A program made the position numbers and the translations under genes. This document shows positions 12,050-54,478 of a DNA stretch of 64,000 nt, in pieces. The first letter of the stretch is position 1. Each line of letters starts with the position of its first letter. The notes below the pieces were generated by a model, which searched no databases, was not told where the DNA came from, and saw only the letters and a list, made by a program, of their open reading frames with translations. Source of the stretch: Naegleria gruberi (Eukaryota); the NCBI GenBank assembly GCA_000004985.1, contig GG738853.1; one strand, 5' to 3'.

Positions 12050-12688
12050 TTACAATCCTAAGAGTTTCTTCTTTTGTTGTTGAAATTCTTCCTCTGTTAA
12101 AATTCCTCTATCTCTCAATTGACCCAATTTCTCAATTTGTGCATAAACATCATCACCACCAGAGCTACCACCACCACCAAGAATACTTCCTGAACTGGAT
12201 GATGTTGAACTGTTAGAATCACTCAAAGGAGTATTAATAACAGTGGTCGTTCCTGGAGCTTTTGAAACATAACGTTTCTGACCAGTTTTTGGATCGACAA
12301 CGAAACCAGGTTGTTGACGAGGTGAACTTGCACCACTTGTTGTTTTCTGAATTGTTTGAGTGGTTCCAAATTTATCATCCAATTTTCTTTGAACGAGTTG
12401 AAGACCTTTTCCTTCTTCTCTTCTAATGAGAATGAATGGGCCTTCCTTTTCAATATTAAATGATTGTACACTGTCAATATTACGTTTAGCAATCAAAATT
12501 CTGACTTGACATTTGGCAAGTGATGGAATATTTACTTGTTGAGCGACGTGTCTTTCCATTTCTATGGTATCTTCCGTTTTACACACGACAATATGATCAC
12601 CTGTTGTGGTTTCAACAGAGAGTTGGAAAGGAAGAGTTTCAGAAGCTGGAATATTTTCGATACAGAATGTCAAGTTGGTGATTGGCAT
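12050..12688 (-). CDS. protein with a C-terminal SHOCT-like domain
   Basis: 212-aa ORF. C-terminal DDVYAQIEKLGQLRDRGILTEEEFQQQKKKLLGL matches the SHOCT (short C-terminal domain) consensus seen mainly in prokaryotes. A Gly/Ser linker lies upstream of it. The N-terminal ~110 aa form a globular, possibly PH-like domain. Confidence 0.5.
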   Translation of the reverse strand: MPITNLTFCIENIPASETLPFQLSVETTTGDHIVVCKTEDTIEMERHVAQQVNIPSLAKCQVRILIAKRNIDSVQSFNIEKEGPFILIRREEGKGLQLVQRKLDDKFGTTQTIQKTTSGASSPRQQPGFVVDPKTGQKRYVSKAPGTTTVINTPLSDSNSSTSSSSGSILGGGGSSGGDDVYAQIEKLGQLRDRGILTEEEFQQQKKKLLGL

Positions 12689-13063: not shown

Positions 13064-14465
13064 ATGATTCATACCACAAGATTCGAACCAAGTGATCGAT
13101 TACTTGTAGTGGTGGAACGTGGAACTAATCTTCCTGCAAAGGATTGGAATGGACTCAGTGATCCTTTCGTTATTCTAAAGTTGAATGATTCGTTTGAGAA
13201 AAAGACGAAAATTATCAAGAAGAATTTGAATCCGGTTTGGAATGAGGAATTTCTCTTCTTTTCATTGGGAGGAAGAGATCCATTGCAATTGACATTTGAA
13301 GGTTAGTATAGAGATTTGGAAATTGATTCAGATAGTGTTTCGTTTTGTTTCAGTGTTTGATTGGGATAGATTCTCAAAGGATGTAAGTTTCTAATAATTC
13401 TATTGGAAATGAGAACTAATGAATGAATAGGATTTTTTGGGATCTGCCACCTTGTTCATTCCCTCTGATAGGTTTGAATTCAATCAATTTCATAAAACTA
13501 TTCTCAATTTAACAACCTCAGGAACTATTTCAATCCATTACAAAATTATTCGAAAGGAACAGAGAGAATCAGGAATGTTTCCTTCCATTACTCAAGGTAG
13601 TGATGGAATTGTTGCTGGTGAGAATGAGAATGAAAGGAATTCCTTTTTTAATTATGAATTTTCTCCAACATTTTGTCCAAGTCTTCCAATGAATTTCAAA
13701 TTATTGTCTGTCAAGAAGGAAAAAAAAGTCATCTGTCAATGTGATTTTGAAGGTCCTTTTGAAAAACCTAGAAATAATCTCACAAAAGAACCAGGAGTTC
13801 TCCAAATATGCTATTTCAATATTCCACAAGACAAATTTTCACAAATCCACTCTGAATATCTATATTCCTATTTTGATCGATTGAAACAGTCTACAGAAAT
13901 CATGAATAGTCAATTGATGATGGAGAAAATTTCACATGAACAGGAGAAGGACATTACCTCTCTCTTCAAGAAGGGAAAATACTCAAAAGTTCTCGAGCAC
14001 ACTTGTAAGGTCAACACAACAGATGGCTTACTCACCGTTCTGACCTTCTCGTGTCTTGTTGGGGATTCCATGATGGCCCTCTTTCGATATGTCAGTTATT
14101 CGTACGAACAGAGAATTCGAATCACCTTAATAGAAATTATGAAACAATCGAAAATTGTACCAATCACGAACATTACATGCAATGGTATTACTAATGGAGG
14201 TGGTAGTATTAATAATAATTATAATTCACCTCCATCTCCTACTGTAACATCTTCATCATCATCTTCATCTTCATCACCATCATCGGATAGAGTTATGGAC
14301 GTGGGAAGTTTGTCCTCCTTAATGGATGATGAAAATTGTGCATTGTGTTCTCCATCACGACTTTTATCGAGTAATAATGCTAACAGTAGGAAAAATTCTG
14401 CAACCTCTCCTAAATCACCAATTATTGCCCTTTCTCCCTCATCCAACAATAAACATCTTCATTAA
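13064..14465 (+). CDS. C2-domain protein, 3 exons (13064-13301, 13354-13382, 13431-14465)
   Basis: C2 motifs RNGLSDPFVILKL...KKNLNPVWNEEF and, after splicing, LTFEVFDWDRFSKDDFLGSA. Introns GTTAGT...AG (52 nt) and GTAAGT...AG (48 nt) flank a 29-nt micro-exon. Ser-rich C-terminal region. Confidence 0.65.
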
Positions 14466-15464: not shown

Positions 15465-16502
15465 TTAAATGAATAATGATTTCCAACTATCTGGTAATCG
15501 TTTAAAGAAGGGAATATTTTGGAATGTTTTAGGTTGATAGACAATTTCAATGGATGGTTTCGACTCTAAATCAAAGGCAAATGGCACATCACATTCAACA
15601 TCTAAATAATATTCAATCTTTAAAAAGGTTCCATTGGTGGAAGGTAAAGTTTTTCTAGGAATGAAAAAATTTAAAACTCTCTCAGTATGTGTTTTGGCAG
15701 AAACTCCTTCAAATTTCATTCTGTAAACTTCGACTGGACCTTGCTTAATTGTTCTACGACCTTCTTTATCATTGGTTTCTCCATAAGTGGTAAGTTTGAG
15801 AGCTGCTTCATCACAAGAAATTGTTGCAGTTCTAAATAATTTAACTTTCAATGATTGAACATCTTTCCTTGAATCATTTTGAATGCTCAATTTGATTGGA
15901 ATAACTTCACATGGTTGGAAAAAGTTCTTTTCCATTTCTAGTTTCATTTTCAATTTACCAATACCTCCAAAAAGGAATTTCTTCTCTTTGAAATCAGTCA
16001 CTTGTTCTCTGATAATGTTTGGAGTAATAGGAACAAGCATACTACAATATAAATCTCCAAGTCTTGCAGCTACCTTATAAATAACTGCTCCTTTGTAAAC
16101 ATCTTTACAATCTTTCATTGAAATAAAAGTGCTTGGAAGCAATCCATTGGTTGGTAATTGAATTTCGAATGGAAACGAATAATCACCTGCTTCTATTCCA
16201 CTAGGAAAGCTTTTAACAATCGGTCTCAGGTCAACCAATGCCTTTTTACCATTCAACGAATAAGAGCTAGTTCTAGTATCCAACTGTATATCAGTCACAA
16301 CTAAACCTTTAGGAGTTACACCAATCTCATCATCCAATATATGAAGTTTAGTTCTTTCCTTTCCTTTGAATATGACAATTAAATTATTAGCTGGAGAGAA
16401 TGAAGATGGCAAAAGTGGTTCAGTGAGAGAAAGATTAATTATTCCACTCACCACTTCACCAGGATGATAGAAAGGCTTGGAAAGAGTAATGAAGATTGTC
16501 AT
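15465..16502 (-). CDS. arrestin-domain protein (paralog of 4109-5131)
   Basis: 345-aa ORF. MTIFITLSKPFYHPGEV...FKGKERTKL aligns along its length with the ORF at 4109. Confidence 0.65.
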   Translation of the reverse strand: MTIFITLSKPFYHPGEVVSGIINLSLTEPLLPSSFSPANNLIVIFKGKERTKLHILDDEIGVTPKGLVVTDIQLDTRTSSYSLNGKKALVDLRPIVKSFPSGIEAGDYSFPFEIQLPTNGLLPSTFISMKDCKDVYKGAVIYKVAARLGDLYCSMLVPITPNIIREQVTDFKEKKFLFGGIGKLKMKLEMEKNFFQPCEVIPIKLSIQNDSRKDVQSLKVKLFRTATISCDEAALKLTTYGETNDKEGRRTIKQGPVEVYRMKFEGVSAKTHTERVLNFFIPRKTLPSTNGTFLKIEYYLDVECDVPFAFDLESKPSIEIVYQPKTFQNIPFFKRLPDSWKSLFI

Positions 16503-20154: not shown

Positions 20155-21803
20155 ATGCAGCAAGAATCGAACAGCGCACAGTTTCAGAATATATCATCTT
20201 CGGAATTGGAGCAAACGAGCACAACGTATGAGAGAAAAGAAGTGAAAATAATCGAATGGAAAGAATGGAAAATTGTCAAGTTTTTTAGAAGAGACAATAA
20301 AGAGAATGGAAATGGACCAAAACTTTACAAGATGAGGTGGATAATATTGCTGATTTTCGCGTTGGCAATGTTAAGTTCGTTTTTGGCTCAGTTGACTTTC
20401 TCTTCTCTTGGGTGAGTATATCGAATATTTCGAATTAAAGCTCATTTTAAATGAAACCATGAATGAAATTGAATTCTACCATTACAATCAGGGTAATTAT
20501 CATGCAGTATTATAAAATTCCACACCAGAATTGGAAAGTCAACATGATGAGTTTGATATTTCTTATAGTTCATCTTCCCTCTTCATTGATAGTGAGTTTC
20601 GTAATGAAACGTTTTGGATTAAGATGTTGCATGATCATATTCGGTTCACTAACATTTATTGGAATGTGGATTCGTTGTTTTGGCTATAAGAAAGGAGACG
20701 AAACCTATTTATGGATTGCATTTTGTGGCCAAACTTTCATTGCTTTTGCCCAACCATTCCTTACGAGCATTTCGGGTCTTTTGGGAGTAAATTGGTTTGG
20801 AGATAAGGAAAGAACACTGGTCCAAGTTGCAGCTCTACTTACGGCAGCTCTCGGAGGCGGAGTCGCATTTGCTATCGGACCTAGTTTAATTACGATGGGC
20901 AAGAGAGAAATGCATGGATCAGAGATTGGAATGCTAGCTTATTTATCTTCCCAGGCCTTTATTTCAACTGCTTGTTTATTGTTGATTGTTATTTTCTTTA
21001 AGGATCGACCACCAACTCCACCAGTACTAATTAAGGAAATTCAAACAATGGAGAAATTGGACGAAAACGAACAAATGTTAACAGAGGAGAGCAGATTGAC
21101 AATTAATTTGACCACTGATGACATCAATATCGAAAAAGGCTTTGAATCTTTCAATTCGAAAGATATTTATCCAGAACAAACTTTTTGGATAGGTTTTAAA
21201 AAGTTAATGACCTCTCCTCATTTCATAATGTTAACAATTTCATCATCCTGTCTGATTTCTGTCTTTCAAACAATGTCCATTCTCGATCAGATCATTAACC
21301 CAAAAGGTTACACCACCTTTGACACTGCAAATCTTAACATTGTCAATTTGGTATTTGTGGTATTTGGATGTTTTGGATTGAGTATTGTATTTGACAAGAC
21401 TAAACGTTTCAAATTGATTTCTTGCATCAGTAGCTTTATGGCATGTTTAGGATTTGCTTGTTTTGCCATTATCTTGCAATGGAACAAGTCAGATTTCACA
21501 ATAATTTTGGTTTATCTGTCAATGGTCGTTATCGGTTGTTCAGCCATTCCCAGTTTACCTCTAATTTCTCAAATGATAGTCTATTCAACCTATCCAATCC
21601 ATCCAGCAACAAGTCTTGTGATATCAAGTGCCTTCAGTACAATTTGGAATGTAATAATGTGGGTCATTGTAAATGTGCTACTGAGCGAGATGAGTAATTC
21701 ATCCAGTGTCATATTGTGGTTGAGCTTTGCGCTATTGATTGTTTCCTTTATAATGACTGTATTATTTAGAGGTAAATTCGATAATATTCTGGTCAATAAA
21801 TAG
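20155..21803 (+). CDS. MFS (major facilitator superfamily) transporter, FLVCR/MFSD7-like, 2 exons (20155-20411, 20492-21803)
   Basis: GTGAGT...AG intron of 80 nt joins ...LAQLTFSSLG to VIIMQYYK.... About 12 predicted TM helices. MFS loop motif WFGDKERTLVQVAA between TM2 and TM3. The upstream ATG choice (20155) is uncertain. Confidence 0.6.
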
Positions 21804-21888
21804 AAACTGTTCAAAGTTTATTTAGCCAAAGTTATACTTTGTTCATTCAACGTTTTTCGAAAATTGTAAATATGATGAAAATGTGTAA

Positions 21889-21977
21889 GGCGGCTTAGCA
21901 CAGTGGCAGTGCATCAGTCTTGTAGGCAGCAATGCTTAGATAACTGAGGGTCGAGGGTTCAATTCCCTCAGTCGCCT
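21889..21977 (+). tRNA. tRNA-Thr(UGU) with a 17-nt intron (anticodon assignment tentative)
   Basis: Cloverleaf: acceptor GGCGGCT/AGTCGCC; D-arm GCAC-AGTGGCA-GTGC; anticodon stem TCAGT/ACTGA with loop CTTGTA|intron GGCAGCAATGCTTAGAT|A; T-arm GAGGG-TTCAATT-CCCTC. TTTT terminator immediately 3'. Confidence 0.7.
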
Positions 21978-22047
21978 TTTGTATTGGTGATTGCCAAGAA
22001 AAACAAGCCTTAATTGTGAATAAGGGATATTTTCTTTTATCAATGTA

Positions 22048-22120
22048 TCCCCCTTAGCTCAGTCGGTAGAGCGTCAGACTGTTAATCTGCAGGTCGGTGG
22101 TTCGAGCCCACCAGGGGGAG
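22048..22120 (+). tRNA. tRNA-Asn(GUU)
   Basis: Acceptor TCCCCCT/AGGGGGA; D-arm GCTC-AGTCGGTA-GAGC; anticodon loop CTGTTAA; T-arm GGTGG-TTCGAGC-CCACC. T-rich terminator 3'. Confidence 0.8.
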
Positions 22121-22590
22121 TTGTTTTGTTTTTGTTTACTCTAAACTTTGAACTATATTTGATATTACGAATAAGCAGAATATTTCTGAAGGCCAATTGT
22201 TATTTTCAAACGAGATATCCCGTCTAGTTGAGCTGGAAAGCTCAAAAGAAGGGAATGTTAAACTAATAAGGATTGGACGTGATATTCCCGTTCCATGATT
22301 TTTTGCGAGTTAAAACCAGTTCCAAAATCAAGCGGTTGTACAAATCAGACAAGCTAACTGGATTTAAGCATACGAACCAACCTGAAAGAAATGTTTTCTA
22401 ATAGAACCTTCCATTGTAAGCTTTCCAGTATACTGAACATTAAAGATCTCAAAGTCTACTAAGTTGAATTACTATTGCAAATCACCATAATGATTGCTGA
22501 TGACATTGCTGCTACTACCACTCATTAAGTGTGTGATTAATTGTTGTTGATTTGTTGGAGAATCAGATAACACAATCAAAAAAACACAAC

Positions 22591-25500
22591 ATGTCTGGTA
22601 AACCAAGATATTCCACACTTGTGGAAATGCTCGAGCATGCAACACAAGAAAGAACATCCTCTCTCATTTACAGACAATTAGATTACTCCAATGATGTGGT
22701 GGGGGAGGAGAAGAAACTTTTCTCTGACTTATTGAAACCTTCAAGTATCAAGGAGATTAGTTATTGTGATTTCTTAAAGAAAGTGAAATCTCTCTCCACT
22801 CTCATTCAAACTCAAGCCAAAAGTGGTGATAGAGCTTTGCTAATCTTTGAACCAGGTATTAACTTTATTGCTGCTTTCTTTGCTACCTTGTTTGCTGGTG
22901 TTATTGCTGTACCTGTCTATCCTCCAAAGAACAAGGAAGAATTCAACAAGTTGAGTAAGATTCTGGCCGATTCTAAACCAAGTTTATTTCTGTTATCCAA
23001 GCTCATTCATCAAAACTTTGAGCAACATGGCATTAACAAGTTTTTTACCAAGATTAATTCTCAACAACATGTCGAGAATCAGGTAATACAAGATGTACTC
23101 AGTGGTTGTCTGGAAACTTATGAAGGTTTTAGTCTTTTGATTTCAGACGCGGTTGACTACAGTGATAAACAATTGTATACATATTGGAAACACCCAAACA
23201 TCGACACAGATTCGGTTGCTTTCCTCCAATATACCTCTGGATCAACCAGTGATCCAAAAGGTGTCATTCTCACTCATAGAAACCTTCTCAACAATCTTCA
23301 TGTTATGAACTATGCCCTACGATACTCTAATCAGAAACATGTTGTGCTCTGGCTTCCTCCTTACCATGACATGGGTTTAATTGCTGGTTTACTTGAAATT
23401 GTCTATTCGAATTGTAGTGCTACTGTATTATCTCCAATCTCCTTCCTGGAAAATCCATTACGTTGGATGTGGGCAATCAATGAATATAGAGCCACATTGC
23501 TGGGTGCTCCTAATTTTGGTTATGATCTCTGTGTAAAGCACTTTCTAGCTCATGAGAAGGAATACAGAGAAAGTTTTAAATTATTCGATTTTAGCAGTTT
23601 GGAAATTGTGGCATGTGGTGCAGAACCTATCAGAGCAGAAACTATGGAAAGTTTCAGTACACTCTTCTCTGAATTTGGATTGAAAAAACAAGCCATGTAT
23701 CCATGTTATGGATTGGCTGAGAGTACTCTCTATGTCACTGGTGTAAACTATATGAAAGGTTTCGACTTTACCACAATTGACAACAAGAACCAATACATTA
23801 TCAAGAATGGAACAGTCGAACAAACACAAACTCATCAAAAATTCGTTAATTGTGGTGTCAACTATGATGAAAATCAATCCATTAAAATTGTCGATCCAGA
23901 ATCTTCTACAGAAATGGAGAATGGAAAGGTTGGTGAAGTTTGGTTGTCAAGTCCAAGTGTCGCTCAAGGTTATTGGGAGAAACCAGAACTTTCTCAAGAG
24001 GTTTTCCATGCACGAGTGGTTGGAGATGATAGGGAGTATCTCAGAAGTGGAGATTTGGGTTTCATGTTGAATGGAAACTTGTACATTACTGGTCGTCGTA
24101 AGGATGTCATTATTTTGAATGGTGTGAATTATTATCCTCAAGATGTAGAATTGGCATGTTCTAAATGTCATGCACAGATTAGAACTGGGTGTGTGGTGGC
24201 TGTTAATATTGCTGATCGTGATGGACAGGATCGATTGGTGATAATTGCTGAAACTAAAGTTGTTTCGAATAGTGAGACACAAGTATTGGAGAGTATTGTA
24301 CAATCCATACGATCTGCAATTGCCGAATCGATGGGAATTCCAATGTATAATGCCCTATCGACCATCCTTCTCATGACTAAAGGAGGCATTCTCAAGACCA
24401 CAAGTGGTAAACTGAGACGTCAACCAACTAAACAAGCATTTCTCAATAACAAACTTCCTCCAAAACTAATCGTTCACAGATGGGATCAGGAGAAACTCTC
24501 AGATAGCGCTTCTCAACCAAGTACTCCAACAGAGATTGGATTGGCTAAAATTTGGAAAGAATTAACAGGAATTGATCCATCACTTTCGAATAACTTTTTC
24601 CTTTTGGGAGGAAGCTCTATGAGTTTGATTCAGCTAAAATCTAGAATCCAACATGTTTTCAATGTAATTATAAGTTTGACTGATTTGGTAATGTCGCCAA
24701 CATTGCAATTGATGGCTAAATTGGTCGATCAACACAGCAATCAATGTAATACTAGCTCTGTACAAATTTCAAAGAGAGAAAGGACAAGTGACACTTTAGA
24801 ATTATCAAACTCACAAACGAGATTCTGGTTCTTACATCACTTGATCGATAATCCTGCCATTCACAATGTTTTTGCAGGTGTTCGTTTGAAAGGTGACTTG
24901 GATAAACAAGCTTTAGAAAATTCCATTACCAAACTTGTAGAACGTCATGAAAGTTTACGTACAAGCTTTCAAGAAACAGAGATGTCACCAATGCAACACA
25001 TTCATTCTGAAATTTCTCTCAAATTAAATTCAATTAGTTTGAAACATCTCACTAGTGAAGAAGAAAAGAATTTGGAATTGAACAAGTTTCTCTTTGATGA
25101 GGTGAACGCACCATTCAACTTGAATGAAGCTCCTCTTCTCAGAGCTAACTTGATCGAAATGTCAGAGTGTGATCATGTTTTGGCCATGACTTTCCATCAT
25201 ATCATAATCGATGGATGGTCCATGAATTTACTTGTTGAAGAGCTAGTTCAATACTATCTGGCTTTTAAGAATCATCAATCGCCAATTCTTCCACAAGTTC
25301 TTCAATATGGTGATTACACACTGTGGAGCAATCAACAACAATCAATGAATGAAACTCAATTAAAATATTGGGAAGAAAAACTCTCCAATTTACCAGAATC
25401 TATCAAATTGCCAACAGAAGGCGAAAACTTATCCAAATCATTTGATGGATCTCATTTCTGGTTTGCAATCCCAGAAACTCTCGTTAACTCCTTAAGAAAG

Positions 25501-28020
25501 ATCGTTCAATCAAGAGGAGCCACACTCTACATGGGCATGTTAACTCTATTCAATATTTTACTGTACAGATATTCTGAACAGAATGATATTGCAATTGGAA
25601 CACCTGTTGTGAATAGACAGCAACATGTTGAGTTGGAAGCACTGATTGGACTCTTGGTAAATACTCTGGTGATTAGAAATAATGTGAATCCAGAGCATAA
25701 TTTCATTGAAACTTTGATGGAAATCAAGTCAACTGTAATTGAAGCTTTTGAAAATCAAGATGTTCCTTTCCAGAAAGTTGTAGAAAGATTGAAAGATTCA
25801 CGTAATTCAATGGAGAATCCACTTTTTCAAGTCATGATGGCCATGCACAACCCACAACGGAAAATTGTCATGGATAATCTTGAAACTGAGCTAGTTAGAG
25901 TTGACAATGGATCATCCATGTTTAATTTAACACTTGAATTACAAGAAATAGAGGATGGAAGTTTACAATGTTGTTTCGAATATAGAACTGATCTTTTCAA
26001 GAAGGAAACTATTGAAAGAATGGCTGGAAATCTTATTGAACTATTGAAATCAGCCACAACTGAATCGGATAACAAATCAATAAGCAAGTTGTCTTTCCTA
26101 TCGAATTCTGAAGTTGAAACTTTGAATAATTTTGGAAATATCACCAATAATGATCTCAGTTCTTCAGTTTCGAATAGATTATTACACGAACTCATTGAAG
26201 AGCAAGCTATCAAAACACCAGACAATACCGCCGTCTACTTCCAAGGTAAATCCTTCTCCTACCAACTTCTCGATCAAAAATCAGACCAATTAGCAAGGAG
26301 ATTACGAGATATGAATCACTCCAAAAATCCCTTCATTGCCATTAGCATTGACAGAAGCTTTGAATTGATTGTGAGTTTAGTTGCCATTCTCAAAGCTGGA
26401 TTTGCCTATCTCCCTCTCGATCCAAGCTATCCACAAGAACGATTACTCTACGTGCTTGATGATTCACAAGCAGGTCTGTTAATAACTCAATCTAATTATT
26501 CTGAAAAATTCAAAGACTATCAAGGGAAAGTGTTGTCTATTGATAGATTCGTTTGGTCAGCAAGTAGCACTTCCACATCCTCCATTAGTATTGAGAAACC
26601 ATTGACATCACCAAATGATTTGGCCTATCTCATTTACACTTCTGGCAGCACTGGAAATCCAAAAGGTGTCATGCTTTCTCACAGAAATGTAAACAATACT
26701 CTCAATGGTCTAATTAAATTGTACGAAATGAAGCAAGATGACAAGTTTATTCATTACAGCTCCTATAGCTTTGATGTTTCATTGGAAGAGATTTTCCTTC
26801 CACTAATTACAGGTGCTTCGATTATTGTGGCCAATCCAAATATTCAATATCAGTTGGAGGAGCTTGTTGACTTGGTTGAGCAAACGAAGGCAACAATCAT
26901 TGGTGTCACTCCAAGTTTGTGGCATGGTATAAGGTACCATGTTTTGAGGAATCCAAAATCAACTGAATCTTTAAGAATTGTCACTATTGGAAATGAACCT
27001 GTTGATTCGAATGCAGTCAAAGAAATCCAACAAATGTGTCCCAATGCAACAGTATTCAATGTATGTGGAGGAACAGAGACTTGCATTGATTGGTCTCTCT
27101 TCAAGGTTCCAAAAGATTATGCACCTTTACAACAAGTAGTTCCTATTGGAAAACCAATTCCTGGTGTCAAATTGTATGTTTTGGATTCGAATAGAGAGTT
27201 AGTTCCAATTGGAGTACCTGGAGAACTCTACGTTGGAGGAAATGGTGTTGGAAATGGATATTGGAAAAATAGTGAGCTAACCTCCAAGAGCTTTATTGAA
27301 AATCCATTCCAAACTAAAGACGAAAAACAGAACAATGTTAATGGAAAACTATTCAAAACAGGAGATTTGGTTAAATGGTTACCTGATGGAAATATGGTAT
27401 TCATCTCCAGATTGGATCATCAAGTGAAATTAAGAGGATTCAGAGTTGAATTGGGTGAAATTCAAAATGTCATGAGGAAGAGTGGTCTCGTCAGGGAGGC
27501 AATTGTGATTCTCCAAGATGATGAGAATGTCAGTAACAAACAACTTGTTGGATACATTGTGTGTAATGAGGGAGAAACTAGACCGCACTCAATCATCATA
27601 CAGCTAGTCAATTCCTACTTGGAGAAACATCTGCCATACTATATGATTCCATCTCATATCATTTGCATTGAAAAAGTTCCAACAACCAATAATGGAAAAT
27701 TGGATCGTAGAGCTTTACCAAGAGCAGTTGACCACCAGCAAACTAAAAGACTAGAAGAAAATATGGGAGAGGTCGATCCAGCTGATATTCCAGAGAGTCA
27801 TTGCAAGCTAAGACAAATTTGGTCCAAAGTACTCAAGATGAAGGAGGATTGCATTGGGTTGAGTGATAACTTTTTTGCAATTGGTGGAAATTCCATTCTC
27901 ATTGCCCAATTGAGAAGCATGGTTCGTACAGAGTTGGGTATTCAGTTAGAGTTGAAGACTTTCTTTGAAAAATTAACAATCCAATCTATGGCTACCCACA
28001 TTGAAACTGTTAGCCAATAA
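22591..28020 (+). CDS. non-ribosomal peptide synthetase, single module with lipo-initiation: FAAL - ACP - C - A - PCP, no terminal TE/R domain
   Basis: One uninterrupted ORF (the tool ORF begins at a TTG at 22552; the first ATG is 22591). FAAL-type N-terminus (RALLIFEPGINFIAAFFATLFAGVIAVPVYPP, YTSGSTSDPKGVILTHRNL). Carrier domain 1 with FFLLGGSSMSLIQL. Condensation domain with HHIIIDGWS. Adenylation core motifs LIYTSGSTGNPKGVMLSHRN, FDVS, NVCGGTETC, GELYVGGNGVGNGY, YKTGDLVKW, GRLDHQVKLRGFRVELGEIQ, LPYYMIPSHIICIEKVPTTNNGKLDRRAL. Carrier domain 2 with FFAIGGNSILIAQL. Stop follows directly. Confidence 0.9.
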   Translation: MSGKPRYSTLVEMLEHATQERTSSLIYRQLDYSNDVVGEEKKLFSDLLKPSSIKEISYCDFLKKVKSLSTLIQTQAKSGDRALLIFEPGINFIAAFFATLFAGVIAVPVYPPKNKEEFNKLSKILADSKPSLFLLSKLIHQNFEQHGINKFFTKINSQQHVENQVIQDVLSGCLETYEGFSLLISDAVDYSDKQLYTYWKHPNIDTDSVAFLQYTSGSTSDPKGVILTHRNLLNNLHVMNYALRYSNQKHVVLWLPPYHDMGLIAGLLEIVYSNCSATVLSPISFLENPLRWMWAINEYRATLLGAPNFGYDLCVKHFLAHEKEYRESFKLFDFSSLEIVACGAEPIRAETMESFSTLFSEFGLKKQAMYPCYGLAESTLYVTGVNYMKGFDFTTIDNKNQYIIKNGTVEQTQTHQKFVNCGVNYDENQSIKIVDPESSTEMENGKVGEVWLSSPSVAQGYWEKPELSQEVFHARVVGDDREYLRSGDLGFMLNGNLYITGRRKDVIILNGVNYYPQDVELACSKCHAQIRTGCVVAVNIADRDGQDRLVIIAETKVVSNSETQVLESIVQSIRSAIAESMGIPMYNALSTILLMTKGGILKTTSGKLRRQPTKQAFLNNKLPPKLIVHRWDQEKLSDSASQPSTPTEIGLAKIWKELTGIDPSLSNNFFLLGGSSMSLIQLKSRIQHVFNVIISLTDLVMSPTLQLMAKLVDQHSNQCNTSSVQISKRERTSDTLELSNSQTRFWFLHHLIDNPAIHNVFAGVRLKGDLDKQALENSITKLVERHESLRTSFQETEMSPMQHIHSEISLKLNSISLKHLTSEEEKNLELNKFLFDEVNAPFNLNEAPLLRANLIEMSECDHVLAMTFHHIIIDGWSMNLLVEELVQYYLAFKNHQSPILPQVLQYGDYTLWSNQQQSMNETQLKYWEEKLSNLPESIKLPTEGENLSKSFDGSHFWFAIPETLVNSLRKIVQSRGATLYMGMLTLFNILLYRYSEQNDIAIGTPVVNRQQHVELEALIGLLVNTLVIRNNVNPEHNFIETLMEIKSTVIEAFENQDVPFQKVVERLKDSRNSMENPLFQVMMAMHNPQRKIVMDNLETELVRVDNGSSMFNLTLELQEIEDGSLQCCFEYRTDLFKKETIERMAGNLIELLKSATTESDNKSISKLSFLSNSEVETLNNFGNITNNDLSSSVSNRLLHELIEEQAIKTPDNTAVYFQGKSFSYQLLDQKSDQLARRLRDMNHSKNPFIAISIDRSFELIVSLVAILKAGFAYLPLDPSYPQERLLYVLDDSQAGLLITQSNYSEKFKDYQGKVLSIDRFVWSASSTSTSSISIEKPLTSPNDLAYLIYTSGSTGNPKGVMLSHRNVNNTLNGLIKLYEMKQDDKFIHYSSYSFDVSLEEIFLPLITGASIIVANPNIQYQLEELVDLVEQTKATIIGVTPSLWHGIRYHVLRNPKSTESLRIVTIGNEPVDSNAVKEIQQMCPNATVFNVCGGTETCIDWSLFKVPKDYAPLQQVVPIGKPIPGVKLYVLDSNRELVPIGVPGELYVGGNGVGNGYWKNSELTSKSFIENPFQTKDEKQNNVNGKLFKTGDLVKWLPDGNMVFISRLDHQVKLRGFRVELGEIQNVMRKSGLVREAIVILQDDENVSNKQLVGYIVCNEGETRPHSIIIQLVNSYLEKHLPYYMIPSHIICIEKVPTTNNGKLDRRALPRAVDHQQTKRLEENMGEVDPADIPESHCKLRQIWSKVLKMKEDCIGLSDNFFAIGGNSILIAQLRSMVRTELGIQLELKTFFEKLTIQSMATHIETVSQ

Positions 28021-28145
28021 ATCCTAAAAATGTAAAATATAAGTTGTAATATCTTAAAATATTTATTATAACGTCTCGTGTATCGTAAAGGTAATGTAAA
28101 ATAGATATTTCATATTGGCCGTGAAAAGTTTAAAAAGGAAAACAA

Positions 28146-28218
28146 CTCCCCCTGGTGGGCTCGAACCACCGACCTGCAGATTAACAGTCTGACGCTCTAC
28201 CGACTGAGCTAAGGGGGA
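28146..28218 (-). tRNA. tRNA-Asn(GUU), inverted duplicate
   Basis: Exact reverse complement of the tRNA at 22048-22120. Confidence 0.8.
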
Positions 28219-28299
28219 TACATTAATAAAAGAAAATATTCCTTATTCACAATTAAGGCTTGTTTTTCTTGTTAAGATTTTGGCAATCACCAGTACAAA

Positions 28300-28388
28300 A
28301 GGCGACTGAGGGAATTGAACCCTCGACCCTCAGTTATCTCAGCATTTCTGCCTACAAGACTGATGCACTGCCACTGTGCTAAGCCGCC
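28300..28388 (-). tRNA. tRNA-Thr(UGU) with 17-nt intron, inverted duplicate
   Basis: Exons identical to 21889-21977. Intron GGCAGAAATGCTGAGAT versus GGCAGCAATGCTTAGAT in the left copy. Confidence 0.7.
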
Positions 28389-28460
28389 TTACACTTTATC
28401 ATCAAATTTAAAATTTTCGAAAAACATGTGCAAGGACAAAGAATAATTCATTTGCAGAGT

Positions 28461-39530: not shown

Positions 39531-39603
39531 GCGGCAGTAGATCAGTGGTTAGATCGTCCGCCTCACACGCGGAAGGTCGCGGGTTCGAACCCCGTTTGCC
39601 GTA
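39531..39603 (+). tRNA. tRNA-Val(CAC)
   Basis: Acceptor GCGGCAG/TTGCCGT; D-arm GATC-AGTGGTTA-GATC; anticodon loop CTCACAC; T-arm GCGGG-TTCGAAC-CCCGT. T-run downstream. Confidence 0.8.
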
Positions 39604-39992
39604 AACAAATTTTAATCTTTTAGTGCTTCTACGGTTCTTTTTCATACCATATGTTTATCTACGTTGTTTCCCAATCTTTATTCAAGAAACGATTGAGACG
39701 AGCTGTTCCTTAATATTATTTGCCAAAACTGAAATTTTTCAAATGCCTCACCATAATTAAATATTGGTTGGATAAAGTGTGTTAAGCATGTTTTCCAGAA
39801 ATTATGAAATATCTCATCAAGGTAAATATAGTTCAATGTTTGTTGGAATTGAATGGTTTCCTGAATAGGTGTTTTTGCTTTTGAAAATGCAAAAAGTACC
39901 CAACACAAATAATGTTTGAAACAAAATATCATCTTTACTAAATATCAATAATTGTATTATTGAAAATCATTAATTCATGCCCTATAAAATTT

Positions 39993-40065
39993 TACGCAAG
40001 GCGGGGTTTGAACCCGCGACCTTCCGCGTGTGAGGCGGACGATCTAACCACTGATCTACTTGCGC
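39993..40065 (-). tRNA. tRNA-Val(CAC), convergent copy
   Basis: Same body as 39531-39603. The acceptor stem is changed to GCGCAAG/CTTGCGT with compensatory changes. T-stem 3' CCCGC and T-loop TTCAAAC. TTTT follows. Confidence 0.8.
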
Positions 40066-41921: not shown

Positions 41922-43679
41922 TTAATAATGTAATTGTTCAATTGCCTCAACCCATGAATCTCTCTCCTCTGCACTGTCTACACAACAGTTCAAATTTCTC
42001 GCTCCCGATATTACCACAAATGTGAAACCCTTCTTTGATTCATCTTCCACATTTCTGGCTCTTGTCTTTGGATCAATTACTACAATGCCCTTTGGTTTTT
42101 CGTTTGGTGCATCCTTGGAGAAATAAAAGAGGAATTCCTTAAATAACAAACAGTACCTCTTCTTCCATGATTTAAAGTTTGAGCCTTGCTTCTCCATATA
42201 GCCTGCCTTGACAGGTCTCATGTGTTTCAGTGTTTGTACAGTTGGGTTAGAACCAAATCGCATCTCTGCTAATGCAGCTCCAGCATTTTCACCACTATTC
42301 TTGAGCAATGTTTGGACATCATTCTTTGATTTTTCATGTTGTTCTTTCAGTGTCAGTAAGGCAGAGGCAAGTTGAAGATTCTCCTTTCTAGATTCATCCA
42401 ATTTTTCTTCCACTTCTTGTTTATCCTTTGTGTATTGCTCCGCCAAAGTTTGTCTTTCCTGTGCAAGTTTTTCTTCCATTTCTTGTCTTTCCTTTTCCAA
42501 AGTTTCAGCCATTTCTTGCTTTTCTTTTATCATGTTTTCTTCCATCTCTTTCTTTTCCTTCTCAAGCTTTTCTTTTTCCAAATTTAGAGATTTTCCCTCG
42601 GTAAATTGTTTCACCCTCTCAATTTCAATCGCCAATCGTTGTTTGAGGTCTTGAACCTGACTCTTGTAGGTATCCAACTCGGAGAGTGTACTATCGAGTT
42701 GAGATTTAGTTTCTTGTAATTGAGTTGTGGCTAAAATTTGAGATTGTTCCAAGTGGGAAACTCTTTCTTGAAGAGTGATGATCTTGGTTTGTTGATTTTC
42801 ATTCTCTCGCTGCAACTTATCATTTGTAGTCAATAGTGAAGTGTTATCGCTTTCTAGTTTTTCAATTTGTTTCCTCATGTGAATTTCTAATTTTTTGTAC
42901 ATGTCAGTTGTTTCAAAGTTGGAAACATTCTTTATGAGCGCCAAGAATGCTTTCATTTCAGGTCTTGTATTTACATCAGGTATTTCCTTTCCTAGAATAG
43001 CAATAGAATTTTCAAATATTTCATTCTTGAGAGTGTCGAGTGTCTCTTCTGACTGTTCCAAAACCAAATCGGAATGGTCACAACTATAAAAAATGGATGA
43101 AATCAGAGACATTATCAAGTGCTTCTCACCATAGAGAATATCTTCAGGCTCCAGCATGATACTCTTCTTGTTCAAATCCAATCTGTCTATTACTTCCAAA
43201 AGGGCTTGGATTTTATCACTATCTGTTGGAGCCTCAGAGATCATTGCCTCATCTTCATCTGTAAAACCCTTAGAGACTGTCTTTACAAGTTGGTGGAAGA
43301 GATAACCGTTTCTCCATTCCTCTCCAAGATTTGTTACCTTAATGTTTTTAGATTCCAACCTATTATTGACCCATCTGAGCAAGAGCGAGAGAGGTTGTTG
43401 ATTCATAAATTCCACAACTGTTTCATCTGCCCTCTTCAATGCAATTGCATCAAAGAAGTGAACAATATTCAGTGATTTAGTCAAATCCTCTCTAATCAAT
43501 TGCCACAAGATGGAATTTAATGCTGTTGGTCTCCCCTCGGCACAATCCTCTGGAGAAATGTTGACTACTACAATACCAAGACCCTTGGCATATCCTAGAA
43601 CCATTGTATGATTCAAAACTCGTTTAATCTTGTTCAATTCTTGTTCCTTCTTTGGTTTACATATTTTACTCCATTCCAC
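41922..43679 (-). CDS. coiled-coil protein with C-terminal PH domain
   Basis: 585-aa ORF. Long heptad-rich E/K/Q central region. C-terminal PH-like segment VKAGYMEKQGSNFKSWKKRYCLLFKEFLFYFS...SWVEAIEQ. Confidence 0.55.
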   Translation of the reverse strand: MEWSKICKPKKEQELNKIKRVLNHTMVLGYAKGLGIVVVNISPEDCAEGRPTALNSILWQLIREDLTKSLNIVHFFDAIALKRADETVVEFMNQQPLSLLLRWVNNRLESKNIKVTNLGEEWRNGYLFHQLVKTVSKGFTDEDEAMISEAPTDSDKIQALLEVIDRLDLNKKSIMLEPEDILYGEKHLIMSLISSIFYSCDHSDLVLEQSEETLDTLKNEIFENSIAILGKEIPDVNTRPEMKAFLALIKNVSNFETTDMYKKLEIHMRKQIEKLESDNTSLLTTNDKLQRENENQQTKIITLQERVSHLEQSQILATTQLQETKSQLDSTLSELDTYKSQVQDLKQRLAIEIERVKQFTEGKSLNLEKEKLEKEKKEMEENMIKEKQEMAETLEKERQEMEEKLAQERQTLAEQYTKDKQEVEEKLDESRKENLQLASALLTLKEQHEKSKNDVQTLLKNSGENAGAALAEMRFGSNPTVQTLKHMRPVKAGYMEKQGSNFKSWKKRYCLLFKEFLFYFSKDAPNEKPKGIVVIDPKTRARNVEDESKKGFTFVVISGARNLNCCVDSAEERDSWVEAIEQLHY

Positions 43680-44428
43680 AACTCCTTCTATTAAATTATC
43701 GATGAGATGACTATTTTACATTCCATTCATTCGTTGTTATTGTTGTTTATCAAATTTCAGAAGAATGATTAGTGAAAACCTACATGAATATTAAACCATC
43801 ACTTAATCGACCATATAACTCATTTGAAGTTTCCAAATTATCAACACTAATTGGTTGCCACTCACCAATCGTTTCCTCCACTCGTTGTGGCATCTCTCTC
43901 AATCTCTTACTCATAACGGAATTAATAAACATGATAAAACACCTCTTCTCTCTCTTTGAAATCGTCGAGACCGAACCTGTTGCACTCACCGATTTAATTA
44001 GTGGCTCGACACTCCTGAGTGAGGCTCCTCTTAACTTGATAGCCTCTTCACCTTCGAGCGTTGTTGTTTGTTGCTGCGAATTGTCGTTATTAAGGTTGCG
44101 AGATGACAACATTTTTTCTACAAGTAATAATTTTTTTAAAAATTCCTTAAATCCTTAACGTCTCCCTTCAACAGCCCAAAGATTTGGCGGGAGAAATCTT
44201 GCTCAATAATGCACTGTAAAATAATGATCCCCTTAATGGTTCTATTCGAAAGGAAAATTAGTTTATTTAAGTATTTAAAAGTTTTCAAGTTTTTTATAAA
44301 ATGTTAAATTTTTGTATCTTTTAAAAAGAATTCATACTTTCAGTTTCAAAATACGAAATGAAGATAAACTTACTTAAAGAACATCAAGAAATTACAATTT
44401 ATTTAATGAAAAATCAAAATGTAAAAAA

Positions 44429-45658
44429 ATGCAAAGACAACAACAGAGAGCATCCTCATCACAAAATGTTTCTCAACATCAGCAATCTCTTGAACAACAA
44501 CAAAATTCTCAAGAAGAGGATGATTTAGAATCGGTCAGATTATCACAAGCTGACGAATTATCGCCACCATCATCACCCGAACCTGAAACTCCTTTTCAAA
44601 ATCGAAGAAGGAGAGAACGAGAACGTTCTTTATCATCTAATGATGAAGAAGAACAATCAGTAGTAGATGAACAAGACAATACTTCAGTAACTCCCAACAT
44701 AAATGCTCATCAAAGTCCCTATGTAACATCAAATGCTCGGAGGAGAGATTTAATGTACTCTAATCGATACTCTCCACAAACACCAGGACAAAAGAAGAAG
44801 GCTTTGGAAAATAAATTGAAAAGGGATTTTCCAGAAGACTTTAGAGAAATGAATAGAAGAGAGGAGGAACGAAAAAAGAAACGAGAATTTTGTCCAGATA
44901 GCTGTGGCTCGATTGCTGGATTTCAATTTACAAATCCTGGTTTACTCATGTTGGGACAGTCAGCACTACATAGATCGGGAGCAATCAGTTCATTGAGTAC
45001 GATTGATCCTGCCTTCCTGGCACTGCATAGTCCCGAGAAGAGAATTGAAATTTTGAATAGTGTGGTTGCAAAACCTCCTCCACTTCCTCCAAAGGAACCA
45101 AAAACAGAGGCCGATATACTGAGGGAGTTTCTTAAAAAGAAGAGAACTGAATTGGCAAAACAGGACAAGGTTCAACCTAGATTGATCATGGCAGATGATA
45201 CTATCGATCTGATTGTCATGTGTAGAGAATCAATGTGTATGGGACATGAACTAGTTGAGAAAATTAAGGAAAAACATCAACAGACGATTGTTAATTATGT
45301 ACGAGCATTTGTGAAAAAGAAACATCAACAGCATGAAACTGCAGATGATAATGTAAATAGCAACCATTTAGATTTGAATGTCAATTCCTCTCACTTGAAT
45401 GAAACGAGTCAATCAGCATGTTTGGAAAATAGTAACAACAATAACACATTGAATGAGATTTCCCAACTGAATCATTCTATTGCATCTTCAACATCTTCTC
45501 AAACTGTTGTTACAGAGCCAGTTACTCCTGCCAAACAAAGTGTTTCCTTAAAAACTCCAACAGCAAGTAATTCAAAGAAAACACCAGTTCAAAAAGAGGT
45601 TATCGAACTTGATTCTAGTGATTCTGATGATGATGATGGAATTATCCAAATTGATTAA
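44429..45658 (+). CDS. low-complexity Ser/Arg/Glu-rich, nuclear-type protein
   Basis: 409-aa ORF with Q-rich N-terminus, RRRERERS, SPxSP motifs and an acidic C-terminal SSDSDDDD tail. Confidence 0.45.
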   Translation: MQRQQQRASSSQNVSQHQQSLEQQQNSQEEDDLESVRLSQADELSPPSSPEPETPFQNRRRRERERSLSSNDEEEQSVVDEQDNTSVTPNINAHQSPYVTSNARRRDLMYSNRYSPQTPGQKKKALENKLKRDFPEDFREMNRREEERKKKREFCPDSCGSIAGFQFTNPGLLMLGQSALHRSGAISSLSTIDPAFLALHSPEKRIEILNSVVAKPPPLPPKEPKTEADILREFLKKKRTELAKQDKVQPRLIMADDTIDLIVMCRESMCMGHELVEKIKEKHQQTIVNYVRAFVKKKHQQHETADDNVNSNHLDLNVNSSHLNETSQSACLENSNNNNTLNEISQLNHSIASSTSSQTVVTEPVTPAKQSVSLKTPTASNSKKTPVQKEVIELDSSDSDDDDGIIQID

Positions 45659-45765
45659 CAGAATCAATATTTTATTAAATAATAACAATCTGATATCTTC
45701 TTAATAAGAACACCTCAATCATCAAATATTACTGATAACACCCTTCACATGTCAGCCATCACCTG

Positions 45766-48681
45766 TTGATCTTCCAAACCATCATAAAAAAAATGTTTAA
45801 AAAAGTCTTTGGAAATAATGGCAGTAAAAAACCAGAGCCAAACAACAATGTCATTGTTGAATCAGCCTCCTCCGACCAACCACCTCCATCATCACCAACC
45901 ACTCCCTCTGACGAACAACCAAGAAAACGAACACCCGTTGCGCCACAAATTCAAGAAGTGAGCGCCAAAGTAAATAATCAATATGTTCCCACCAAAAAAA
46001 ACACCGAAGAACAGTACAGTGAGAGTGATAAGGGAGTCTCTGAGAGAAATAAACAAGCATCGGATGTGGTTCGTGTTGAGAGAAATCAGGGTGATGAAGC
46101 GTTGAAGGCTGTTAGAGGATTGTCTGATGGTTTGGAAGATCAACAGGATGATGATTTGGATGGAAAGAAGAAGAAGAAAAAGAAGAAGGATAAAGAAAGT
46201 ATTGTTGTTAATACAACAGCTGGAAAGGGAAAGAAATCAACAATTTTGGGTGATTTGATGGGAATTGCTGCTAGAAAGGGATATCTGAGTAAGAGAGGTG
46301 GTTCTATCAAGACTTGGCACAAGAGATTTTTCATTGTTGTTGGTCATCGTCTCTATTATTACAAAGACGATAGTTCAAAGAATGAACCATTGGGTTCTGT
46401 TAAATGTAAAGGACCAGAAAGTGTTCAACCTGTTGCAGACACATCTCGTCCTAACTGTTTTAGAATTATCTCTGAAGAGAGAACATTATACTGTCAAGCT
46501 GAAAATGAAAATGACATGAATTCTTGGATGAATTTTTTGAAGGAACACACTTCAAAATTGAATTTACGTAAAGTGAAAGAACTTTCCAATCTTCAAGGAT
46601 ACATGACATTGTTGGATAATCAAACAAAGAAAAAGAAACGTGATGTTTATTGTTTGTGTATGGATGGTAAATTTTACATTTTGAATAATTTTGAGGATGT
46701 ATTACCGGATAGAATTGTAGAATTGGCTGGTGCCAGTGTAAGCAAAGTTAGTATTTCAGGTACATCAACAAATAATTTATTGGAAACACCTGCAACTCCT
46801 TCAAGTCCTAGAAAGATCAACAATACTGAAATTCAAGATTTTGCATTCCAAATCACAGAAAGTTTGCAAGCCGGATACATCCCAGAAGATGTTGCACCAG
46901 AAAAGGAAAAGTCTGGTAGATCTTCACGTTCCAGCTCTACTTTCCGTCAATCTAAAATGTTCAGTAGAAAATCAATGAAGGTCAATGATAGCAGTCAATC
47001 AGGAAGTGGACAAGGCGATACTACAGCTCGTTTGAGAAAGGGAACTCAATTTTTCCAAAACTTGATCACTAGTGTTGAAGGACTCAATCAAGTTACACTA
47101 ACATCAATTGATCCATTTTTGGCTGATGCTGAAATTTGGTGTGAAATGGTTCGTCACGAATCTGAATTGGCCTCAACCAGTTGGTATGTTCGTAACTCTC
47201 AAATGCGTGGTTGGATCAAGATTTTAATGAACAACGATGAAGTCAACAAGGCCATTCTTCAAGATAAGAAGAAACCAGAATCATTATATTGGATTGAAAG
47301 ATATGCCTGTCTTGTTCGTGGTACCTTGTTCTACTTTTCCGAAGAGAATTCTCCAACTCCAGATGGTAGTATTGTCCTCACTACAGGTTCTCGTCTCGTA
47401 ACCTCAGCTGTTCGTGAATTGAACTGTCCATATGCATTCAAGATTTCTTCACTTTCATCCAATTTTTATGTTTGCGTAAATTCGGATGATGAAAAGGATT
47501 GTTGGGTTGAAGAATTAAAGGAAGCAACCTACTCTCAAGCCAATCTCGACTATAACAAGTATGGTTGGTTGACCAAGCAAGGTGGTTCCTACAAGTCTTG
47601 GAAGGAACGTTTCTGTATCTTGAAGGGTACCAATTTGTACTATTTCTCTGATCCAAATGACTCTGAACCTAAGGGTAAAGTCAATCTTAAGGGTCAAATG
47701 ATTCGTCACCTTACTCCAGTCGAGGCCTACAATGAAGTTCAAAAGGATAACGTTATCAAGATTTACACTAGTCAACGTACTTGGTATTTCTTTGCAGATA
47801 CCATGCAAGAAGCTGTCGAATGGTCTATTGTATTGAGAAAGGCAGCCCTTCTCTATCGTGGTAGAACTTGGATTGTTGATGACAAGTTGGATGGCATGGA
47901 TGCAAAGAATTCCTTGAGATGTAAGAGTATTTCCCAAGCTGTTGCCAAAGCAGCAGAATTGGATCGTATCATTGTCTATTCTGGTGTATATTCTGAAACT
48001 GTAGTTGTAAACAAATCTGTAATTATAGAATGTGTAGGTGATGTGGTATTAAAGAAGGATTCTGGAGCTCCACTCATTGTGGATTGTATTGGTGCCGTAA
48101 AGGTCACTGGTATGGAATTAAGACAAGAAGGAGCTCCTAAAGAGCTCAGAGGTGACAAACATGCAGCTGAAGTTAAACGTGGTAACATTATGTTTGAACA
48201 TTGTCAAATTACCAGCAGAGATGGTAATGGTGTTGTCATTACCGAAGAAGGTGGTGTCACTATGAGCAAGTGTCGTGTATTCGACTGCAACCACTATGGC
48301 GTTTGGTTGAACGGAAGAGCTAGTGCCATTTTGGAAAATGTGGAAATTTGTGGATGTCAATGGGATGGTGTCATGCTCATGGCTAATACTGACTGTATCA
48401 TTCGTCAATCTGATATTTTCAACAATTCTTACAATGGTATTGCCGTCTCTTCAAAGGGTCGTCTCAATGTAGAAAATTGTAGAATAAGTGGAAACTTGTG
48501 GGATGGTATCTCTATCAATACTGACAAGGGTGCTGCCAGATTATTCGATAACTTTATTTTTGACAACCAAGGATTTGGTATTTATTATGCTAAAGATAAT
48601 GTCAGTGGTATCAACGTTGACAATGAAGTGTATTCCAATAAGAAGGGTCAAATCTACACTCTCAGTGGTAGACTTGAATAA
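45766..48681 (+). CDS. protein with three PH-like domains followed by right-handed parallel beta-helix (pectin-lyase-like) repeats
   Basis: 971-aa single-exon ORF. PH-like signatures KGYLSKRGGSIKTWHKRFFIV...SWMNFL, a central PH segment near 47150-47550, and KYGWLTKQGGSYKSWKERFCILKGTNLYYF...EWSIVL. The C-terminal 330 aa carry repeated ~22-aa G/N-rich beta-helix units. Confidence 0.6.
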   Translation: MIFQTIIKKMFKKVFGNNGSKKPEPNNNVIVESASSDQPPPSSPTTPSDEQPRKRTPVAPQIQEVSAKVNNQYVPTKKNTEEQYSESDKGVSERNKQASDVVRVERNQGDEALKAVRGLSDGLEDQQDDDLDGKKKKKKKKDKESIVVNTTAGKGKKSTILGDLMGIAARKGYLSKRGGSIKTWHKRFFIVVGHRLYYYKDDSSKNEPLGSVKCKGPESVQPVADTSRPNCFRIISEERTLYCQAENENDMNSWMNFLKEHTSKLNLRKVKELSNLQGYMTLLDNQTKKKKRDVYCLCMDGKFYILNNFEDVLPDRIVELAGASVSKVSISGTSTNNLLETPATPSSPRKINNTEIQDFAFQITESLQAGYIPEDVAPEKEKSGRSSRSSSTFRQSKMFSRKSMKVNDSSQSGSGQGDTTARLRKGTQFFQNLITSVEGLNQVTLTSIDPFLADAEIWCEMVRHESELASTSWYVRNSQMRGWIKILMNNDEVNKAILQDKKKPESLYWIERYACLVRGTLFYFSEENSPTPDGSIVLTTGSRLVTSAVRELNCPYAFKISSLSSNFYVCVNSDDEKDCWVEELKEATYSQANLDYNKYGWLTKQGGSYKSWKERFCILKGTNLYYFSDPNDSEPKGKVNLKGQMIRHLTPVEAYNEVQKDNVIKIYTSQRTWYFFADTMQEAVEWSIVLRKAALLYRGRTWIVDDKLDGMDAKNSLRCKSISQAVAKAAELDRIIVYSGVYSETVVVNKSVIIECVGDVVLKKDSGAPLIVDCIGAVKVTGMELRQEGAPKELRGDKHAAEVKRGNIMFEHCQITSRDGNGVVITEEGGVTMSKCRVFDCNHYGVWLNGRASAILENVEICGCQWDGVMLMANTDCIIRQSDIFNNSYNGIAVSSKGRLNVENCRISGNLWDGISINTDKGAARLFDNFIFDNQGFGIYYAKDNVSGINVDNEVYSNKKGQIYTLSGRLE

Positions 48682-54381: not shown

Positions 54382-54478
54382 TATCTTTTCATCACGAGTT
54401 AATCTTCCTTCAATTGATTCACAACCTCCACCAGCCAACAATTTTACTGCAATTACCTCATCTTCACAACCTCTACAA

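Follow-up and report, generated by a model that had tools for sequence, protein, structure and literature searches.

The window considered here, the whole stretch of DNA that was analysed, comprises 64,000 nucleotides of Naegleria gruberi, and its GC content of about 33–37% is typical of amoeba nuclear DNA. Positions 12050..12688 (-) carry a complete intronless coding sequence, a single open reading frame (ORF) running from ATG to stop without interruption and encoding 212 amino acids plus the stop. An earlier note, made from the letters alone, had described a small intronless gene at this place, and so it is. Exact-sequence look-up identifies the ORF product as the N. gruberi protein XP_002680658.1 / EFC47914.1 / UniProt D2V671, locus NAEGRDRAFT_46987, which is labelled ‘predicted protein’ in its record; a literature search found no paper that mentions these gene identifiers. 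The limits of the coding sequence follow from the ORF list, this look-up and the starts of the orthologues: the initial Met-Pro of D2V671 is common to the orthologues in alignment A1, pointing to the same start. The same gene is present, with two synonymous changes and one non-synonymous change, in a metagenome contig (L001) that is 98.4% identical to the window. Its GC content is 0.372 and its GC3 0.216, compared with 0.352±0.022 and 0.295±0.043 for 30 ORFs of the window; both values fall inside the spread, and the third codon positions are AT-rich. Intronless genes are common in these 64 kb.

Around the SHOCT gene, as it will be called for the domain at its end, lie genes for C2, arrestin-like and TPR proteins. 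About 130 nt beyond the C2-domain ORF (13064..13306), and in the same orientation, begins an ORF of 342 aa (13437..14465). The two, spanning 13064-14465 (+), probably represent separate exons of a single gene; in the gene calls for the near-identical contig L001 they are distinct entries. Two intronless arrestin-like ORFs, each with Arrestin_N and Arrestin_C, are located at 4109-5131 (+) and 15465-16502 (-), and the former also matches the bacterial Spo0M family (E=9e-10).

The SHOCT tail and the anatomy of D2V671

The C-terminus of D2V671 reads DDVYAQIEKLGQLRDRGILTEEEFQQQKKKLLGL, as the earlier note quoted it when claiming a close match to the SHOCT consensus in the last 30 amino acids. Is this likeness significant? 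The comparison with Pfam PF09851 by HMMER that the note had proposed leaves little doubt: hmmscan places SHOCT at residues 183-210 of 212 with E=1e-10 and 41.5 bits, covering positions 1-28 of the 28 in the profile, and the score stands 14.5 bits above the gathering score of 27. The only other Pfam entry at E<=10 is GvpG, far under its threshold and on the same helix; a scan of D2V671 against NCBIfam gave no match. A SHOCT HMM built from sequences gathered in the analysis and run over the whole window in six frames finds this site only (E=4e-18), the second-best score having E=0.6. A match to the full model and a single site in six frames together put the resemblance far beyond chance. The domain occupies 12059..12142 (-), as judged from the Pfam match, the AlphaFold2 helices and a check by translation, and is predicted to be a two-helix hairpin, with helices at residues 177-193 and 199-210 (pLDDT ~80) and a turn at R194-G195-I196. 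Neither a search by sequence nor one with the SHOCT profile found a solved SHOCT structure among PDB chains. In the orthologues the G-I-L-T-x-x-E-F core, with the flanking L-x-x-L and K-K-x-L-L, is nearly invariant. A Gly-Leu pair follows SHOCT at the very C-terminus; a terminal LGL is counted in four of the five aligned orthologues and also ends many other family members. The C-terminal exceptions among the five are Asn-Leu in P0003 and the Willaertia protein P0005, which is truncated.

The presence of SHOCT in N. gruberi is already known since 2013. The paper defining the domain (Eberhardt et al., PMC3581485) treats N. gruberi in a separate section and counts 14 SHOCT proteins there, so the observation made from the sequence is a rediscovery; most of these proteins have one C-terminal copy, two have three, and D2VS68 has eight. 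In the supplementary text of that paper, as far as it is accessible, D2V671 is not found. The Pfam 26 counts given there are 790 bacterial, 53 archaeal and 19 eukaryotic species, of 882, which agrees with the remark in the earlier note that SHOCT is uncommon in eukaryotes, and within eukaryotes the domain is patchily spread, occurring in Naegleria, trypanosomes, Dictyostelium and oomycetes (PMC3581485). Like D2V671, the published SHOCT proteins, which include those of the same organism, combine a C-terminal two-helix module of 28 residues with a linker and an unrelated globular domain. What differs is the partner: the main text of PMC3581485 names Band 7, bPH, CorA, PLD-nuclease, PUB and others, whereas that of D2V671 is an uncatalogued beta-sandwich. 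A larger protein that carries the SHOCT name is A0A6A5CCE5, a 69-kDa ‘SHOCT domain-containing protein’ prominent in the vesicle-cargo and secretion proteomes of N. fowleri (PMC9312180, PMC12089049).

How is the rest of the protein built? The boundaries of its parts were taken from the five-orthologue alignment A1 and a full-length AlphaFold2 model, and the coordinates were checked by translation. Residues 1-108 (12365..12688 (-)) form an eight-strand beta-sandwich domain, recognised by its family signature and predicted fold. It is followed by the conserved motif GFVVDPKTGQKRY at residues 128-140 (12269..12307 (-); alignment A1 and translation check), a predicted beta-hairpin whose strands are modelled with low confidence. 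G128, F129, V131, D132, P133, T135, G136, K138 and Y140 are invariant in alignment A1, and the motif, GFVVDPxTGxKxY, is also found in P0009, P0010, P0012 and P0014; it is common to the group of single-domain orthologues including that of Acrasis, and is kept from Naegleria to Acrasis within an otherwise disordered region. It has no match to a known family, and might serve as a short linear motif or as a strand docking on the beta-sandwich. Residues 142-178 (12155..12265 (-)) are a disordered linker rich in Ser, Thr and Gly, delimited by pLDDT below 50, by pN and by translation, and differing between species in both length and sequence. In a Nei-Gojobori comparison of N. gruberi with N. lovaniensis, in which synonymous sites are saturated at about 0.7, pN is lowest in SHOCT (0.08), reaches 0.23 in the beta domain and rises to 0.61 in the linker. 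The low values in the beta domain and SHOCT and the high one in the linker indicate purifying selection on both folded parts and none on the linker. No signal peptide or transmembrane segment was found in D2V671, so the protein is most likely cytosolic; hydropathy over 19 residues (Kyte-Doolittle) peaks at 0.79, and residue 3 already starts the first strand.

The beta-sandwich head and its family

Profile A2, which covers residues 1-145, was run with HMMER over 1.84 billion cluster representatives and retrieved 25 proteins at E<=1e-3, none of them a prokaryotic match. Iteration inside this set delimits a domain of ~105 residues that occurs in 1-4 tandem copies per protein; the 37 copies, aligned as A3, share the signature NIPAS-E-x-PF-x-L ... 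Q-x-FN(L/I)T-x-x-G ... Q-x-x-DD-x-F. SHOCT stands at the end of 14 of the 25 representatives, and those that lack it are mostly short fragments. P0011 and Acrasis kona P0013 are much larger, at ~1,050 residues each, with three beta domains and SHOCT repeats; Pfam finds eight SHOCT stretches in P0011, and the two have the kind of architecture published for the eight-SHOCT N. gruberi protein D2VS68. A word-index search with alignment A3 found nothing, and one with two beta domains of P0011 found two metagenome proteins only.

Homologues with the same layout over their full length come from N. lovaniensis (62% identity), N. fowleri (61%), Willaertia magna (47%) and a Naegleria-like ENA sequence (59%). 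UniRef already lists the first of these as ‘SHOCT domain-containing protein’. The Acrasis kona protein P0014 has the same architecture including the mid motif. NCBI and UniRef name this protein (KAL0477359.1) ‘tgtA’, which appears to be a misannotation. All family members with an organism name are heterolobosean, belonging to Naegleria, Willaertia magna (P0005, P0024) and Acrasis kona (P0013, P0014), a distribution based on few named members, as most matches are metagenome or transcriptome sequences without organism name. One metagenomic member adjoins intron-split MCM6, NAGLU and PDI genes in exon-like pieces, and such exon-split neighbours as MCM6 and NAGLU show that its contig is eukaryotic.

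What kind of domain is the head? Modelled from the 37-sequence alignment, it has eight strands, with a pLDDT of 93.2 and a pTM of 0.84. Foldseek with this model against the PDB gave no match at E<=1e-3 and a best TM-score of about 0.55, and a comparison of the beta-domain profile with solved structures likewise found no sequence link (best E 0.16). The 37 copies have no consistent Pfam match at E<=10, each weak match being confined to one copy. The structural neighbours are the extracellular domains of PepT1/2, Bacteroides fimbrial subunits, TssJ, transthyretin, CBM41, domain 4 of pneumolysin and the luminal domain of HGSNAT. Since this mix is broad and no family is ahead, the domain would be an Ig-like or transthyretin-like sandwich of generic type, one that cannot be traced to a parent family, and the variety of its neighbours allows no ligand to be named. 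Sequence identity to such sandwiches is 4-14% and no family stands out; the modelled likeness is one of fold and not evidence of homology or shared function.

Several more specific assignments were tried. The earlier note had suggested a bacterial PH (bPH_2) fold for the N-terminal domain, and this did not hold. There is some likeness in layout, as bacterial proteins with bPH_2 and SHOCT also have a small beta-rich N-terminal domain ahead of a C-terminal SHOCT. The head of D2V671 differs from bPH_2 in being an eight-strand sandwich that lacks the C-terminal capping helix; two structure models and three fold searches returned no PH structure among the matches, and bPH_2 (PF03703) has no sequence match in D2V671 (Pfam, E<=10) or in the 37 copies. 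C2 domains are eight-strand sandwiches as well. The fold lists contain a few C2 structures at low rank, and ‘NIPAS..PF.L’ of the head superficially resembles the strand-loop-strand ‘NLP..D..G.SDPYV’ of C2. Membership of that family was rejected: hhalign against the C2 domain encoded in the window gives a probability of 0.8%, and Pfam C2 matches are absent from all 37 copies. Kinship with arrestins fared no better, at a probability of 0.5% against an arrestin domain of the window. Finally, the conserved ‘NLT’ of the family could be read as an N-glycosylation site. This reading was also discarded because the corresponding residues of D2V671 and the orthologues are NIE, NVE or DIA and no family member has a signal peptide.

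No domain library describes the beta-sandwich of D2V671. We lean, by a modest degree, towards the view that this ~105-residue domain represents a previously undescribed family, apparently confined to Heterolobosea, which has co-evolved with SHOCT in proteins that combine 1-4 beta domains with 1 to 8 or more SHOCT copies. This uncatalogued partner family recurring with SHOCT appears to be the new point of the locus. With a single uncharacterised beta-sandwich joined by a linker to a single SHOCT, D2V671 is about as simple as the available eukaryotic SHOCT proteins get. Were the family as described, Naegleria and related amoebae would offer a tractable eukaryotic setting for work on SHOCT function, and D2V671 would be the minimal member to start from.

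Origin of the gene and of its SHOCT module

Did the gene, or a part of it, come from bacteria? Beyond the family, the only matches at E<=1e-3 are two bacterial-looking proteins, one of them lipoprotein-like and the other a membrane protein with the JGI label ‘sortase’. They match the SHOCT tail alone, with 77-78% identity over 15% of the query. Homologue taxonomy, which the earlier note had put forward as a check, thus divides along the protein: the tail-only matches look bacterial, and the full-length homologues with a name are all heterolobosean. The gene is carried by N. gruberi, N. lovaniensis, N. fowleri, Willaertia magna and Acrasis kona and is not patchy among the relatives of its host. 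In N. lovaniensis and Willaertia it is located on contigs of 776 kb and 167 kb, where its neighbours are PIG-P, Rcd1, adaptor-complex, ataxin-2-like, Myb and Macro genes; no conserved gene order around the orthologues was seen among N. gruberi, N. lovaniensis and Willaertia. A bacterial transfer of the whole gene is contradicted. Most of the protein is without a prokaryotic relative, the heterolobosean spread is deep, the composition is native and the neighbours are eukaryotic, and for these reasons the gene as a whole is not regarded as horizontal. D2V671 is very probably a genuine, vertically inherited nuclear gene of N. gruberi, from a family whose named members all belong to Heterolobosea.

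A vertically inherited gene is compatible with an older event that concerns the origin of the tail only. The SHOCT module may have entered an early heterolobosean or an earlier eukaryote from bacteria, been fused to lineage-specific domains and multiplied, so that only the 28-residue tail would be bacterial. We find this plausible, although somewhat short of an even chance. It draws on the overwhelmingly prokaryotic distribution of SHOCT and its patchy spread in eukaryotes (PMC3581485), and on the fact that the best matches outside the family are the two bacterial-looking tails. The occurrence of SHOCT across deep heterolobosean branches (Naegleria, Willaertia, Acrasis) implies that any transfer was ancient. 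Against it, the same pattern would arise if the last eukaryotic common ancestor had SHOCT and some descendants lost it, and 28 residues carry too little signal for phylogeny and hence for direction or timing. The suggestion of the earlier note that the gene is a horizontally acquired or ancient bacterial-type module therefore survives in part: SHOCT is indeed mainly prokaryotic, whereas acquisition of the whole gene is opposed by heterolobosean homologues, native composition and eukaryotic neighbours.

That acquisition, had it been recent, would have brought in a bacterial PH-like or DUF domain together with SHOCT, and a small intronless gene with a domain typical of bacteria does invite the idea. 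It is nevertheless highly improbable, given that the N-terminal 145 residues have no prokaryotic match among 1.84 billion representatives and only heterolobosean ones among named matches, that the third codon positions are AT-rich as in a gene of native composition, that orthologues with eukaryotic neighbours exist in at least five heterolobosean species, that the fold is not PH and that intronless genes are common in the window. Similarly, the convergence on a short amphipathic helix that the earlier note offered as an alternative, that is, a chance likeness of a short helical hairpin lacking bacterial homology, could appeal to a domain of only 28 residues and simple composition (rich in E, K, Q and L), and is hardly credible in view of an HMM match over all 28 positions, the nearly invariant G-I-L-T-x-x-E-F hallmark with its flanks, the 77-78% identity to bacterial SHOCT tails and the noise-level scores of the rest of the window. 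D2V671 is then best seen as an ordinary vertically inherited amoeba gene and not as a sign of gene transfer.

Possible role, and further features of the window

What might such a protein do? A comparative study predicts that SHOCT and SHOCT-like domains act as anchors, keeping a variety of intracellular domains close to the membrane's inner face (PMC11237479), and a literature search found no functional work on SHOCT later than this. By analogy with that predicted role of the bacterial domains, D2V671 may tentatively be viewed as a soluble adaptor that docks its beta-sandwich head through SHOCT, an idea in which we place rather low confidence. Judging from the anatomy, the beta-sandwich would be a ligand-binding head for a protein, a lipid or a glycan, and SHOCT, on its flexible tether, would be the docking module recruiting the head to a membrane-proximal site or a partner protein. 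The relatives combining 1-4 beta domains with SHOCT repeats that number up to 8 or more could then be multivalent versions of the same adaptor. The SHOCT helices carry no net positive charge and are only weakly amphipathic, with Eisenberg hydrophobic moments of 0.25 and 0.34. These properties do not favour direct membrane insertion of SHOCT, and docking to a protein would fit better than direct lipid binding.

The authors who defined SHOCT proposed other roles, self-association or nucleic-acid binding (PMC3581485). Applied to D2V671, SHOCT would be a putative helix-hairpin-helix-like module of either kind and the protein an oligomeric or nucleic-acid-bound array of sandwiches. Arrays of 8 or more SHOCT (P0011) and 2-4 beta domains would suit a multivalent assembly, and the weak amphipathicity of the helices, arguing against direct membrane binding, is in keeping with this reading too. 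We think it unlikely, because the sole published oligomerisation test, in which a bacterial SHOCT was fused to domains 3 and 4 of rat Cd4, was negative (PMC3581485), and the net charge of SHOCT is about zero or negative.

Elsewhere in the window, an uninterrupted ORF of 1822 aa for a non-ribosomal peptide synthetase (NRPS) at 22552..28020 (+) contains two AMP-binding domains, one Condensation domain and two PP-binding domains, with an MFS transporter ORF (20463..21803) just upstream. The NRPS ORF is bracketed by an inverted repeat of ~285 nt whose arms, at 21852-22133 and 28133-28425, are 95-97% complementary, and each arm holds a tRNA-Thr(tgt) and a tRNA-Asn(gtt) gene. This bacterial-type NRPS module with its mirrored tRNA pairs seems more worth a second look than the SHOCT gene. 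Two tRNA-Val(cac) genes in inverted orientation, about 390 nt apart, lie at 39531-40065. Together with the Thr/Asn pairs, the Val pair suggests that tRNA genes in this region tend to be mirrored duplicates. Strong local AT and GC skews mark the stretches 42000-46000 and 54000-56000 (AT skew -0.19, +0.17 and +0.23); long ORFs and short tandem repeats with periods of 12 and 33 are found in the same places, and these are probably low-complexity coding repeats.
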